From positions 896,001 to 960,000 of the forward strand of contig CAWGVS010000006.1 in assembly GCA_963826115.1 (NCBI GenBank): 64,000 nt of DNA. The letters run 5' to 3'. Below, piece by piece: positions 37,025 to 40,384 of this stretch. The notes below the pieces were generated by a model. It was given only the letters and a program-made list of their open reading frames with translations, searched no databases and had not been told where the DNA came from. The stretch is from an uncultured Candidatus Rokubacteria bacterium (lineage in GTDB: Bacteria; Methylomirabilota; Methylomirabilia; Rokubacteriales; DASRDR01). Numbering within the stretch: the stretch's first letter is position 1; every line of letters begins with the position of its first letter. The position numbers and the translations under genes are program-made.

Positions 37025-38263
37025 GTGCCCGAATTCCCCTGGCTGCGCCTGGTCGCGCTGATCGCGTTCGTCGGCAGCTACCTTGGCCTGGCCCTCGGGC
37101 GTCTCCCCGGCTTCCGCGTCGACCGCACCGGCGTGGCCATCATCGGCGCCACCGTCATGGTCGTGTCCGGGGTCCTGCCGTGGGACAAGGCGGTCGCCAG
37201 CGTCGACGTGCACACGCTCGTCCTCCTGTTCGGCATGATGATCGTCGCGGCGTACCTCCGGCTGTCCGGGTTCTTCCATCTGGTGACGCACTGGGCGGTC
37301 CGGCGCGCCCGGGGACCGATCGGGCTCCTGGCGGTGGTCGCGCTCGCATCCGGCGTCCTCTCGGCGCTCTTCGTCAACGACGTGATCTGTCTCGTGCTCG
37401 CGCCGGTCGTGCTGGCCGTCGTCCGCCAGCTCCGCCTGCCGCCGGTGCCGTACCTCCTGGCGCTCGCGACCGCGGCGAACGTCGGGAGCGTCGCCACCCT
37501 GACCGGGAACCCGCAGAACATGCTGATCGGGAGCTTCTCGGGGATCGGCTACCGCGCGTTCCTCGCGCGGCAGGCGCCGGTGGCCGTGGTCGGACTCGCC
37601 TGCGTCGTCCTCGTGCTATGGCTCGTCTACCGGCGGGAGCTGCCGAAGGCGCTGCCGTCGGCGAACCTCGCGGCGAACTTCCCGGTCCACGCGGCGCTCA
37701 TGACGAAGACGATCGTGGCGGTGTGCGTGATGCTCGTCGCGTTCTTCGCCGGGGTGCCGATCGCCCTGGTGGCCGTGGGCGGCGCCGCCGTCTGCCTCCT
37801 CACGAGGCGCGTCAAGCCGGAGAAGGTCTACCGGGAGATCGACTGGCATCTCCTCGTCCTCTTCACCGGGCTCTTCGTCGTGATCGGGGGGGTCGAGGCG
37901 GCGCACCTGACCGACTACCTGTTCAGCGTCGCGAACCGGCTCGCCCTGTACCGGCCGGCCGTGCTGACCCTGGTGACGGCAGTCCTGTCGAACCTCGTCT
38001 CCAACGTCCCGGCGGTGCTTCTGTTCAAGACGATCATCCCGGGCTTCGGCGAGCCGGTGCGCGCCTGGCTCATCCTGGCGATGGCGTCCACGCTCGCCGG
38101 CAACCTCACGATCGTGGGCTCGGTGGCCAACCTGATCGTGGTGGAGGCCGCCCGCGAGGAGCGGGTGGCGATCGGATTCTGGGAATACGCCCGGATCGGC
38201 GTGCCCATCACCCTGGTGACGCTGGTCCTCGGCTGGGCCCTCCTCGTGCTCCTGCCGGCGTAG
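37025..38263 (+). CDS. ArsB/NhaD/CitMHS (YbiR-like) anion permease
   Basis: SALFVND, ANVGSVATLTGNPQN, SNLVSNVPA, STLAGNLTIVGSVANLIV. Confidence 0.88.
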   Translation: MPEFPWLRLVALIAFVGSYLGLALGRLPGFRVDRTGVAIIGATVMVVSGVLPWDKAVASVDVHTLVLLFGMMIVAAYLRLSGFFHLVTHWAVRRARGPIGLLAVVALASGVLSALFVNDVICLVLAPVVLAVVRQLRLPPVPYLLALATAANVGSVATLTGNPQNMLIGSFSGIGYRAFLARQAPVAVVGLACVVLVLWLVYRRELPKALPSANLAANFPVHAALMTKTIVAVCVMLVAFFAGVPIALVAVGGAAVCLLTRRVKPEKVYREIDWHLLVLFTGLFVVIGGVEAAHLTDYLFSVANRLALYRPAVLTLVTAVLSNLVSNVPAVLLFKTIIPGFGEPVRAWLILAMASTLAGNLTIVGSVANLIVVEAAREERVAIGFWEYARIGVPITLVTLVLGWALLVLLPA

Positions 38264-38324
38264 CAGGACGCGACGACTCGACGCGGGCCCGGTCCCCCGG
38301 GCCGCGTGTGCTACCGTGGAAGTC

Positions 38325-38639
38325 GTGGCCGGAGTCCGCTGGCTCTTCGTGTTCCTCCTGTGGGCGGCCCTCGACCTGTCCGGGCCGGTTCTCTTCGTCT
38401 CCGTCGAGGCCTTCGAGGAGTCCGAGGAGGCAGCGCACCGGGCCCAGGCCCGCCGGCGCGAGCGCCAGGCCGCGGTCCAGGCGACGCCGGCCGGGTGGCG
38501 CATCCGCGCCGCGGTGACCCGCCCATCGCCCCTCGCGGCCGCCGCGCCGCGCCACCGGGGGCCCGAGACGGGCAGGGGTGACGTGCTGAAGTTGCCGCCG
38601 TCCGGCCCCGGTTCCGATTCCGCTCCCGACGACCACTAG
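38325..38639 (+). CDS. small membrane-anchored protein, candidate regulatory leader ORF
   Basis: Hydrophobic N-terminus, acidic then basic linker, Pro-rich tail ending APDDH; GTG 7 nt after extended -10 TGTGcTACCGT (alternative start 38316). Confidence 0.55.
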   Translation: MAGVRWLFVFLLWAALDLSGPVLFVSVEAFEESEEAAHRAQARRRERQAAVQATPAGWRIRAAVTRPSPLAAAAPRHRGPETGRGDVLKLPPSGPGSDSAPDDH

Positions 38640-38755
38640 CTCTCCCCGATCCCCGTCGCTCACCTGAAGGCGCCGCTCCGTCCGCGACGGGCCTCTGCCC
38701 CGTCGCGCGCCCGGAGCGTGCCAGCCCGTTCTCGTCACCGATCAAGGGGGAGAGC
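38639..38755 (+). promoter_or_regulatory. structured intergenic RNA sequestering the usp Shine-Dalgarno
   Basis: GCTCTCCCC (38639-47) is the exact complement of GGGGAGAGC (38747-55); inner stems GCTCCG/CGGAGC and CGCGACGGG/CCCGTCGCG. Confidence 0.6.
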
Positions 38756-38756
38756 C

Positions 38757-39341
38757 ATGGACACGCACCGTCAGCTCGATGTCCGTACCGAGGCCGACCA
38801 CCGAGCCCGCCGGGTTCTCGTCGTCGTGCACGGCCGGGAGCCGGCCGGCTGGGCCCTCGACGTCTCGCGCGCCCTCGCGGCCTCGCCCGGCGCCACGGTC
38901 GAGGTCCTCGCCGTGGTCGAGACGCCTTCTCCGCCCTCCGCGTCGCTGCTCCCGGCCGCCCGGCGTGCTCGCGCCCGGGCCCGCGCCGAATGGCGCCGGC
39001 TCGAGGCGGAGAGTGTCGCCCTGGGAGTCGAGGCCCTCCTCGCCTGCCTGGTCGAGCGGCCCGGGGTGACGTGGGTGCACGTCGCCGACGCCGATCCCGG
39101 CCGGGCGATCGTGGACCGAGCGAGGGCGTGGCCCGCGGCGGACCTCATCGTCGTCGGCGTGGACCGGACGAACTGGCTCCGGCGCCGGCTCCTCGGGCCC
39201 ATCCACGAACGGGTCGTCGCCCGCGCCGGCTGCCCCGTGCTGGTCCTGCCGCCTCCCGGGTGGACCGCTCTCGGCGTGAGGGACGACGTGCCGACGGCGG
39301 GATCCGGCGGGCGGCCGGTCGCGGCCGAGGGGGGCGCCTGA
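38757..39341 (+). CDS. universal stress protein (divergent)
   Basis: RVLVVV, ADLIVVG, LLGPIHERVVARAGCPVLVL. Confidence 0.78.
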   Translation: MDTHRQLDVRTEADHRARRVLVVVHGREPAGWALDVSRALAASPGATVEVLAVVETPSPPSASLLPAARRARARARAEWRRLEAESVALGVEALLACLVERPGVTWVHVADADPGRAIVDRARAWPAADLIVVGVDRTNWLRRRLLGPIHERVVARAGCPVLVLPPPGWTALGVRDDVPTAGSGGRPVAAEGGA

Positions 39342-40384
39342 TGGCCACCCTGTTCCCGTTCGGGGAGTACTGGTGGCTCTACGCGGCCTTCACGGGCGGC
39401 GTGCTGCTGCTGCTCCTGCTCGATCTCGGGGTGCTCCACCGGGACGAGCACGAGGTAGGGTTCCGGGAGGCCGCGCTGTGGAGCGCCGCGTGGGTGACGC
39501 TCGCGCTCCTCTTCAACGCCGGCCTGTACGCCTATGCCGTCACCACGTTTCCGGACAACCCCCGGCTCGCCGCGATCCCGGGGTTCGACCCGGAGGCGGC
39601 AGCCTGGCAGGTCGCGCTCGAGTTCCTCAGCGGGTACGTCGTGGAGTACTCGCTGTCCGTCGACAACATCTTCGTGTTCGTCCTGGTCCTCCGGTACTTC
39701 GGCGTTCCCGCGCGGTACCAGCACCGAGTGCTCTTCTACGGCATCCTGGGCGCGCTCGCCTTCCGCGGGATCTTCATCTCCCTGGGCGCCGTCCTCATGC
39801 AGTTCCACTGGGTCGTGTGGGTGTTCGGGGCCTTCCTCGTGATCACGGGCCTCCGGATGCTGCGCGGCGGGGAAGAGACCGTCGACCCGCACCGCAACCC
39901 GCTGATCCGTGTCGTCGCCCGGGTGCTCCCGGTCACCCACGAGCTCCTGGGGCGCCGGTTCTTCGTGCGCAAGGAGGGACGGCTCTGGGCTACACGCCTC
40001 CTGGTCGCACTGCTGTGCCTGGAGACGAGCGACATCGTCTTTGCCATCGACTCCGTGCCCGCGATCTTCGCGCTCACGCGGGAGCCGTTCATCGTCTTCT
40101 CGTCGAACGTGTTCGCGATCCTCGGGCTCCGGTCGATGTACTTCATGCTCGGGGGCGCCGTCGAGCGGTTCCACCTGCTCCGCTACGGCCTGGCGGTGGT
40201 GCTCGTGTTCGTGGGTCTCAAGATGGTCTGGCTCGACGCGTGGTCCGGCGGGAAGTTCCCGATCGGGATGTCGCTCGCCATCATCGGGGTGGCGCTCGGC
40301 ACCTCGGTCGTCGCCTCGCTGGTCTATCCCCGACGGCATGACCCCGCGCTGGCAAGTGCGCGGCCGGAGGAGGGCTCGCGGTGA
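39341..40384 (+). CDS. TerC/Alx family metal (Mn) homeostasis membrane protein
   Basis: EYSLSVDNIFVF, QHRVLFYGILGA, DIVFAIDSVPAI, SNVFAILGLRSMYF. Confidence 0.92.
   Translation: MATLFPFGEYWWLYAAFTGGVLLLLLLDLGVLHRDEHEVGFREAALWSAAWVTLALLFNAGLYAYAVTTFPDNPRLAAIPGFDPEAAAWQVALEFLSGYVVEYSLSVDNIFVFVLVLRYFGVPARYQHRVLFYGILGALAFRGIFISLGAVLMQFHWVVWVFGAFLVITGLRMLRGGEETVDPHRNPLIRVVARVLPVTHELLGRRFFVRKEGRLWATRLLVALLCLETSDIVFAIDSVPAIFALTREPFIVFSSNVFAILGLRSMYFMLGGAVERFHLLRYGLAVVLVFVGLKMVWLDAWSGGKFPIGMSLAIIGVALGTSVVASLVYPRRHDPALASARPEEGSR

Follow-up and report, generated by a model that had tools for sequence, protein, structure and literature searches.

A Conserved Small Leader Gene Upstream of usp and terC in Rokubacteriales, and a Helix That May Couple Its Translation to Theirs

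The stretch of DNA analysed here (the window) comprises 64,000 nucleotides (nt) of contig CAWGVS010000006.1 from an uncultured Candidatus Rokubacteria bacterium and has a G+C content of 72%. It carries a small open reading frame (ORF), here called the leader, followed on the same strand by usp and by a terC gene of the Alx subfamily. The leader is a coding, conserved gene under protein-level selection, and an RNA helix (P1) that lies at its stop codon and takes in the ribosome-binding site (RBS) of the next gene is conserved in all loci. The leader would serve as a coupling device that works through RNA structure or, with a lower likelihood, as a new nascent-chain sensor. On balance, we regard RNA-unfolding translational coupling as the probable reading, in which the translation of usp-terC depends on ribosomes that reach the leader stop codon; we infer this dependence of usp on leader translation from the sequence. 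An earlier note, made from the letters of the window, had proposed that a ribosome stalled by the leader peptide uncovers the Shine-Dalgarno (SD) region of usp. The uncovering of the SD by a ribosome at the stop codon fits the conserved RNA anatomy, but plain coupling explains that anatomy without any stall.

Conservation of Helix P1 at the Leader Stop Codon

The spacers between the leader and the next gene range from 59 to 123 nt in the 20 loci, and the short forms (59–65 nt) have no inner hairpins. In minimum free energy (MFE) folds, the 18 nt that follow the leader stop pair with the RBS window of the next cistron in 20/20 loci (5–13 pairs). At least seven such pairs were found in 18 of the 20 loci, versus 23.9% of shuffled spacers. 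Counted from the first base of the stop codon, the P1 arm has its start at −2 to +4 in the 19 loci where the next gene is usp. The arms read CUCUCCCC:GGGGAGAG in the family of the window and mostly CCUCCGCG:CGCGGAGG in the other family, and the positions that flank the GGAG:CUCC core alternate among C-G, G-C and U-A. Duplexes of cognate arms had a mean of −21.8 kcal/mol versus −18.3 kcal/mol for non-cognate arms, and none of 20000 permutations was as good. For the genus of the window, RNAalifold gave a P1 of 9 base pairs (bp) in which one compensatory and three wobble changes occur along with two mismatches. In the public runs, a relative's DNA contig that corresponds to 38485–38799 retains P1, with C38755 changed to T to give a G-U pair.

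The earlier note had staked its proposal on the conservation of the ORF tail and of the stem, and both are conserved in related genomes: the helix begins at the stop in 20/20 loci, and the arms differ between the two families while pairing persists. A global MAFFT alignment of 19 spacers brought the arms out of register and was therefore left unused for pair counts. A covariance model built on the seven spacers from the genus of the window scored those seven at 116–155 bits and the other family at 13–24 bits, amid antisense and spurious matches, and was not used for covariation.

The accessibility of the RBS was predicted with and without the anti-SD arm. When the stop codon and the 12 nt after it were masked, the mean cost of opening the RBS fell from 16.3 to 10.6 kcal/mol, and the cost was lower in 19/20 loci.

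Layout of the Locus in the Window

The features of the locus, all on the + strand, are as follows.

38261–38263, +: stop codon of a CitMHS-type transporter gene
38307–38317, +: extended −10-like element TGTGCTACCGT, with TG at 38309–38310 and the hexamer TACCGT at 38312–38317
38325–38639, +: small leader ORF of 104 amino acids (aa) with a GTG start and a TAG stop at 38637–38639; GC content at third codon positions (GC3) 0.92
38337–38405, +: R5 and the hydrophobic segment W6-V27, with D17 and P21 conserved in mid-segment
38406–38438, +: acidic cluster with a His at its end (EAFEESEEAAH)
38589–38636, +: C-terminal module KLPPSGPGSDSAPDDH, consensus RKxP-x12-[ED][DA]H-stop
38639–38651, +: 5′ arm of helix P1, anti-SD GCUCUCCCC plus GAUC; its first base is the last base of the stop codon
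38652–38739, +: inner nested hairpins of the spacer, variable in length and sequence between lineages
38740–38755, +: 3′ arm of P1, i.e., GAUC, a bulged AAG and GGGGAGAGC, the usp SD region
38757–39341, +: usp, 194 aa; Pfam Usp (PF00582) E = 4.9e-18, 66.5 bits versus a gathering cut-off of 24
39341–40384, +: terC, Alx subfamily, 347 aa; Pfam TerC E = 1.9e-48

The assignment of terC to the Alx subfamily is based on the NCBIfam model TIGR03718 R_switched_Alx (E = 5.2e-117, 390.6 bits, curated cut-off 246.4). The earlier note had described the leader as a GTG-started ORF of about 104 aa with a TAG stop, and this is present at 38325–38639 as described. As corrections to it, usp starts at ATG 38757, after a spacer of 117 nt behind the leader TAG, and terC at ATG 39341, which overlaps the TGA of usp.

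In the window, P1 consists of 13 bp: G38639, CUCUCCCC and GAUC pair with the GAUC at 38740–38743 and with GGGGAGAGC at 38747–38755, leaving AAG bulged. Stated as two arms, the last base of TAG plus CUCUCCCCGAUC faces GAUC/GGGGAGAGC, and the helix closes the nested hairpins. It was thus found as the earlier note had drawn it, with an anti-SD arm that overlaps the stop, pairs with the usp SD and encloses nested stems. The spacer has an MFE of −63.4 kcal/mol (z = −2.96), a stability equalled by 2/200 shuffles, and 13 pairs between the bases after the stop and the RBS window were reached in 0/100 shuffles of this spacer.

Two further pairings were noticed around P1. The CCA at 38633–38635, in the last sense codons, can pair with the UGG at 38758–38760 (usp AUGG) and so extend P1 over the start codon. 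All seven sequences from the genus of the window have this extension unchanged, which makes it uninformative, and it would not form in most loci of the other family, which have AUGA or AUGAU. Just past the anti-SD arm, a small hairpin with a U/C-rich loop (38655–38668; GUCG-UUCCU-CGAC in most members of the genus, GUUC-GUUCCU-GAAC in G250) presents a second anti-SD-like sequence, which is degenerate in the window itself.

Upstream of the leader, between the stop of the CitMHS-type gene and the −10 element, an imperfect GC-rich inverted repeat with a 4-nt loop was found at 38283–38305 (GCGGGCCCGG / CCGGGCCGC). It may terminate the CitMHS-type transcript, although it has no U tract.

A Coupling Model for usp-terC

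In this model, Rokubacteria have a module of three genes, in which a leaderless small ORF precedes usp and an Alx-type terC and would act as a translational gate. In the resting state, the usp RBS would be locked in P1, the other arm of which starts at the last base of the leader stop codon. A ribosome reaches about 12 nt past its A site, and one that finishes the leader would hold the anti-SD arm in its mRNA channel. With a ribosome at the stop codon, the SD would be free and the initiation of usp would be possible, since the usp RBS lies about 100 nt downstream and would not be occluded by that ribosome. The translation of terC would then follow through the overlapping usp stop and terC start. 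Coupling of this type would tie the expression of usp-terC to the translation of a leaderless cistron and probably to the duration of its termination.

The RNA-unfolding model of coupling has been described with rpmI-rplT (+52 nt) and phage f1 VII-IX as examples (PMC12548453). In these systems, as would be the case in the present one, structure silences the downstream RBS, and translation of the upstream gene removes one arm without the ribosome occluding that RBS. At the leader loci, the downstream RBS is predicted to be paired, and one arm of the pairing lies within reach of a ribosome that finishes the upstream ORF. It differs from the two examples in that the spacing is longer (59–123 nt), the arm starts exactly at the stop, and the upstream gene, an apparently leaderless small ORF specific to the family, ends in a tripeptide that is highly conserved. 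If coupling is all that takes place, the module would represent a clean and conserved natural case of long-range RNA-unfolding coupling from a leaderless cistron.

A number of results weigh against this reading. Even with the arm masked, opening of the RBS is still predicted to cost 8–13 kcal/mol, and no benefit was found in one locus (G050). In a control of 990 crude co-directional gene pairs from the same genome, in which the MFE fold was checked for pairing of the 18 nt past the stop with the RBS window of the next gene, 22% had at least seven and 12.8% at least nine pairs, and a duplex of −23 kcal/mol or lower was found in 10% of the control gene pairs. When windows were ranked as partners of the RBS, the one after the stop came in the top three in only 8/19 loci and between 5th and 63rd (of 304–395 windows) in the remaining 11. 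Such a helix is not rare in this GC-rich genome, and the argument is carried by its conservation. The co-variation of the arms is mostly one split between two families, and the leader relatives are kin, so the locus counts overstate independence. According to PMC12548453, coupling efficiency usually drops with distance, and in one screen structure just after the stop correlated negatively with coupling. With respect to the transcript, a consensus promoter scanner gave 0 sigma-70 sites at the leader locus, and the single contig from a public RNA run (about 94% likeness) lies over 39234–39450, i.e., the leader and its start are uncovered.

The End of the Leader

The leader stop codon is TAG in 17 of the 20 loci and TAA in three; TGA was not found. 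This differs from the genome background (4240 ORFs), where TGA makes up 66.6%, TAG 30.3% and TAA 3.1% of the stops. The usp stop is TGA in all 18 loci with an intact frame. As the change from UAG to UGA needs two mutations, the missing UGA is weaker evidence than the background frequency implies. The base directly after the leader stop is C in 19/20 loci, and this base also belongs to the P1 arm. Within 14 nt past the stop, CUCC is present in 19/20 leader loci versus 7.3% of the genes in the genome of the window. The codon choice next to the arm is also distinct: Glu at position −3 is encoded by GAA (10/10) and Glu further upstream in the last nine residues by GAG (5/5). The use of GAA at −3 avoids an SD-like GAGGA next to the anti-SD.

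Both UAG and UAA are read by RF1. In E. coli, termination is weakened by acidic residues near the C-terminus and by a C after the stop codon. Taken together, the invariant acidic-His C-terminus, the restriction to UAG and UAA, and the C after the stop suggest that the dwell time at leader termination may be a tuned step, with a termination that would be slow.

The leader and usp share one reading frame in the window, with no further stop across the 117-nt spacer (counted on 38637–38757). Read-through of the UAG to a leader-spacer-Usp fusion was considered and rejected: the closest relatives have spacers of 116 or 118 nt, so the shared frame is not conserved and looks accidental.

The Start of the Leader

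The extended −10 that the earlier note had placed 7 nt before the GTG is present (TGTGCTACCGT), and GTG 38325 begins 7 nt past the hexamer TACCGT. An alternative GTG at 38316 overlaps the hexamer. A TANNNT motif ends 6–10 nt 5′ of the start codon in 19/19 loci, and in 13 of them the distance is 6–7 nt. The second family has in addition a TGGAC/TGGAA element 17 nt upstream, and in genome G027 TACAAT is followed by 7 nt and ATG. No SD-like motif was found 5′ of the leader start in 19 loci, with the exception of the hexamer itself. The closeness of TANNNT to the start and the lack of an SD suggest that the leader mRNA may be leaderless or nearly so. A search of public sequencing runs found none that contained half of the query words.

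The Leader Protein

The GC content of the leader by codon position (0.80/0.57/0.92) resembles that of usp (0.84/0.60/0.90), and its frame and length are kept among relatives with 27–80% identity. The family consensus comprises M-x-x-L-R, a hydrophobic segment with near-invariant Asp and Pro, an acidic cluster that ends in His, a variable linker rich in R, A and P, and RKxP-x12-[ED][DA]H-stop. The hydrophobic segment has a Kyte-Doolittle mean of 1.94, and AF2 predicts one long helix for residues 2–53 (pLDDT 94 and 90 in the first two 10-residue blocks), with the remainder disordered. Residues W6-V27 are, by these predictions, a probable signal-anchor or transmembrane helix. The pattern of R, 11 hydrophobic residues and D[LFI] occurs in 70/72 pattern-matching relatives. 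In the acidic cluster, E28, E32 and E34 are nearly invariant in the family alignment, and the strict pattern is satisfied by 56/150 relatives; the cluster with its His is a possible metal-binding site, judged by its residues. The specific conservation of D17 and P21 is a hint that the peptide could also function as a membrane protein.

The strongest conservation is found at the C-terminus. The last three columns of the alignment have the highest information content of the family, and among the 150 best relatives the final residue is His in 134 and the final tripeptide [ED][DA]H in 123; about eight carry one or two residues beyond the motif (EDQG/P/S, DDHLA, EDHS). The K of RKxP lies 16 residues from the C-terminus in 76/99 motif-bearing relatives. 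From D17 to the C-terminus, the interquartile range of distances is 84–87 (n = 43 relatives that match all three strict patterns) despite the variable linker sequence; D17 and the K of RKxP are a median of 71 residues apart. Cys is missing from 105/150 relatives. The earlier note had described a Pro-rich tail and proposed a search for a conserved C-terminal motif. A conserved C-terminal motif does exist, but the polyproline stretch is not the conserved portion of it, as PP inside the last 15 residues occurs in 87/150 relatives and in the window protein. Polyproline/EF-P stalling at KLPPS was rejected as a conserved feature, since only K-x-P is conserved. A ribosome paused at KLPPS would also be 12 codons short of the P1 arm, as counted on the window sequence.

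Distribution and Gene Order

A profile search with the leader gave one match each in 20/251 Methylomirabilota genomes, all from a single order: the window's own genome, 5/20 genomes of its family, and 14/159 of a second family. In eleven other families of the phylum, 0/71 genomes matched. The negative tallies of genomes take in two unpublished genomes (G038 and G055), and the positive claims rest on neither. Against 1.84 billion representative proteins, the profile found 178 clusters at E ≤ 1e-3, and all named members of the family are Rokubacteria sequences annotated as hypothetical protein. The leader protein has no match to a Pfam or NCBIfam family. A sequence search of the PDB gave a single chance match (E = 1) and no other. 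Scans for further loci yielded one locus from metagenomes and four from contigs, the latter all duplicates of G008, G013, G014 and G011.

The earlier note had suggested a search for conserved genes downstream of the leader. The order small ORF, usp and Alx-type terC was found in 19/19 genomes, with differing flanking genes. The 20th genome, G027 (locus L063), has the small ORF, a 31-codon hydrophobic mini-ORF (MTINKYEG...) and a terC of the YjbE type. A terC is thus downstream in all 20 loci, and none of the 20 carrier genomes has the small ORF without a terC in its neighbourhood. An Alx-type terC (E ≤ 1e-60) is present in 7/41 relatives, and all seven carry the small ORF. The mini-ORF of G027 takes the place of usp and has its own SD, which together with the AUG makes up the 3′ arm of the helix; the UGA that ends the mini-ORF overlaps the terC SD. 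Genome G033 (contig C45) contains a second Alx-type terC (L071; 69% identity over residues 3–187) directly behind another gene, with no small ORF or usp upstream.

Several loci in metagenome-assembled genomes have split or over-long terC or usp frames, i.e., L047 (G013), L050 (G050), L054 (G250) and L060 (G169). A 280-aa relative, P0101, was considered as a leader-Usp fusion and rejected, since it reads as a call frameshifted after the acidic cluster. These odd frames and the frameshift of P0101 are probably assembly errors and not biology.

Alx/TerC genes are textbook targets of the Mn riboswitch. The earlier note did not recognise the yybP-ykoY Mn riboswitch (RF00080) here, and this was borne out: at E ≤ 10 neither RF00080 nor any other Rfam family was found in 37800–39400, and RF00080 had 0 matches in the whole genome of the window, while control genomes do match. 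The genome of the window (G000) has three TerC-family genes, and the absence of RF00080 throughout it implies that the other two are also controlled in some other way.

Relation to Known Systems

The yybP-ykoY riboswitch governs access to an Alx-type terC from a cis element at the 5′ side, as the leader region would. The difference is that here a translated ORF occupies the place of the riboswitch, and RF00080 is found neither in the locus nor in the genome. A translated leader thus stands where the Mn riboswitch usually is, across one order of an uncultured soil phylum.

The leader resembles CutF of Rhodobacter capsulatus and the CutF-like/CruR (DUF2946) proteins in several respects. Both these and the leader are ORFs of less than 150 aa whose N-terminus carries a hydrophobic signal and whose conserved C-terminus contains Pro, and both have a stretch that is a candidate for metal binding; in both, a stem-loop lies over the RBS of the next gene, and this gene acts in metal homeostasis (PMC9973294; bioRxiv 10.1101/2025.02.05.636593). 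PMC9973294 filtered for length (<150 aa), an N-terminal signal, PP in the last 15 residues and a same-strand neighbour within 1000 nt; the window protein has such a length and neighbour, a hydrophobic N-terminus, and PP as in the 87/150 relatives given above. With regard to the Cys/His metal-binding motif that CutF-like proteins expose outside the membrane, the leader has the acidic cluster and one His after the hydrophobic segment, and Cys occurs in a minority of relatives. Unlike CutF-like proteins, the leader has no Pfam DUF2946 match (27 members, E ≤ 1) and no Cys motif, its conservation lies in the terminal [ED][DA]H rather than in a PPP stretch, its mRNA appears to be leaderless, and usp and terC fall outside the neighbour classes named in the available text of PMC9973294.

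The monitoring-substrate arrest peptides (PMC10987492), such as MifM for yidC2, resemble the leader in having a signal or transmembrane segment at the N-terminus and a conserved motif at the C-terminus, joined by a variable linker, as well as a stem-loop that sequesters the SD. Their stem-loop is opened by a ribosome held near the end of the ORF, in some classes with the stop codon in the A site. In contrast, the genes downstream of the leader are not secA, secDF or yidC, and its motif is unrelated to RAPP or RAGP. The survey in PMC10987492 covered only ORFs upstream of sec and yidC genes, with Rokubacteriales in its genome list, and TerC is not mentioned in those of its supplements that were searched. 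Termination-arrest peptides such as PepNL and TnaC resemble the present proposal in that the event takes place with the stop codon in the A site (PMC11890864); PepNL is a short peptide that uses UGA and RF2, whereas the leader is about 100 aa long and uses UAG or UAA. A leaderless first cistron that governs downstream genes has also been reported for mycobacteria, where such ORFs attenuate the expression of operons (PMC4633059; bioRxiv 10.1101/834739). Those ORFs are short and sense amino-acid supply via codon runs, whereas the leader has about 100 codons and a conserved protein sequence.

In the library searched, no paper combines 'TerC' with 'arrest peptide'. For 'TerC' with 'upstream open reading frame', none of the matches listed concerned TerC/Alx regulation; they were mostly on eukaryotic RNA biology, with one on bacterial ABCF resistance factors.

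Alternative Explanations

The conserved protein sequence of the leader allows two explanations that go beyond coupling. One is that the peptide itself matters, as a stable protein that crosses the membrane once and acts together with TerC and/or Usp, for example as a subunit or substrate or in handling metal; in this case the helix would merely tie its synthesis to theirs, and the conserved termini would be binding or metal sites rather than signals to the ribosome. This is a tentative possibility, with clearly less than an even chance, and it is compatible with both the coupling and the sensor readings. D17, P21 and an R placed exactly 11 residues before the D inside the hydrophobic segment, the acidic cluster with its His, the confident AF2 helix at the N-terminus and the presence of the small ORF beside terC in all 20 carrier genomes are consistent with it. 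However, the leader evolves much faster than TerC (27–55% versus 67–82% identity among the genome loci), around half of it is predicted to be disordered with an R/A/P-rich linker whose length is nonetheless tightly conserved, and the Alx-type paralogue in G033 has no such gene upstream. The other explanation, which we consider a little less probable still and hence unlikely, is a regulated arrest-peptide sensor. Here, a nascent chain whose N-terminus anchors it in the membrane or guides it across would slow or block termination at [ED][DA]H-stop upon a signal (metal, pH, or TerC-dependent translocation or metalation), so that P1 stays open and usp-terC is induced, in the manner of CutF for cutO and MifM for yidC2. 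The position of the highest conservation, in the three residues directly before the stop, the fixed 16 residues between RKxP and the end, the tight D17-to-end distance across a linker of variable sequence and the exclusive use of UAG or UAA would all be in keeping with such a sensor. Three of the four search criteria of PMC10987492 apply to the leader (N-terminal hydrophobic segment, conserved C-terminus, and >30 aa between them), and arrest with the stop codon in the A site has been reported there (NSP-stop, NAP-stop and DGMK-stop). CutF provides a precedent, as a small exported protein that has a motif for metal, a stalling motif at its C-terminus and a stem-loop over the next RBS (PMC9973294; bioRxiv 10.1101/2025.02.05.636593), and TerC proteins co-purify with SecY and SecDF (PMC10550928). 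The nearest named clusters in the ESM Atlas, which are leads only as all score <0.9, were SecM_small (0.89), a PF20558 (DUF6769) cluster auto-named 'DUF2946 domain-containing' (0.88) and SecM (0.87). Against the sensor, 27 members gave no Pfam match to SecM (PF06558, PF10818) or DUF2946 at E ≤ 1, and no PDB chain matched; PP is not conserved; about 8/150 relatives extend past the motif; the residue-specific conservation at the N-terminus is unusual for a mere targeting signal; the downstream genes are neither Sec nor YidC components; and the missing UGA is, as noted, weaker than it looks. In its fullest form, which is just as doubtful, the leader would found a new class of peptides that arrest at the termination site ([ED][DA]H-stop, RF1) and would be a monitoring substrate for TerC. 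With the ribosome at the stop, the nascent chain would be threaded through the membrane, and its release would be slowed until a demand on metal handling or translocation by TerC, or on Mn or pH at the acidic-His cluster, is satisfied. The stalled ribosome would keep the anti-SD arm unpaired and thereby feed back on usp-terC, and the leader would be a protein-based replacement of the Mn riboswitch. If the peptide does stall termination, nascent-chain sensing as known from SecM, MifM and CutF would extend to TerC, which has recently been tied to the Sec translocon and to the metalation of exported enzymes, and a new stop-codon arrest motif would be added.

Two further explanations concern the RNA. 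The helix may have no regulatory role and be an intercistronic structure of a GC-rich operon, kept for mRNA stability or present by chance, with usp initiated independently. Comparable pairing between the after-stop bases and the RBS in 13–22% of the control gene pairs of the same genome agrees with this, as does the finding that some loci do no better than their own shuffles (56/100 in G205 and 29/100 in G174). We consider it improbable, because the helix is kept at the stop in 20/20 loci despite spacers of 59–123 nt, a different downstream gene in G027 and differing arms. Least probable by far is a ligand-binding riboswitch in the spacer, in which P1 would sequester the SD and the ORF would be incidental. 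P1 does close a multi-stem structure in the long forms. Nevertheless, no Rfam family was found at E ≤ 10, the spacers of 59–65 nt have no inner stems, the genus-level model gives only 13–24 bits to the spacers of the other family, and the ORF is clearly under protein-level selection.

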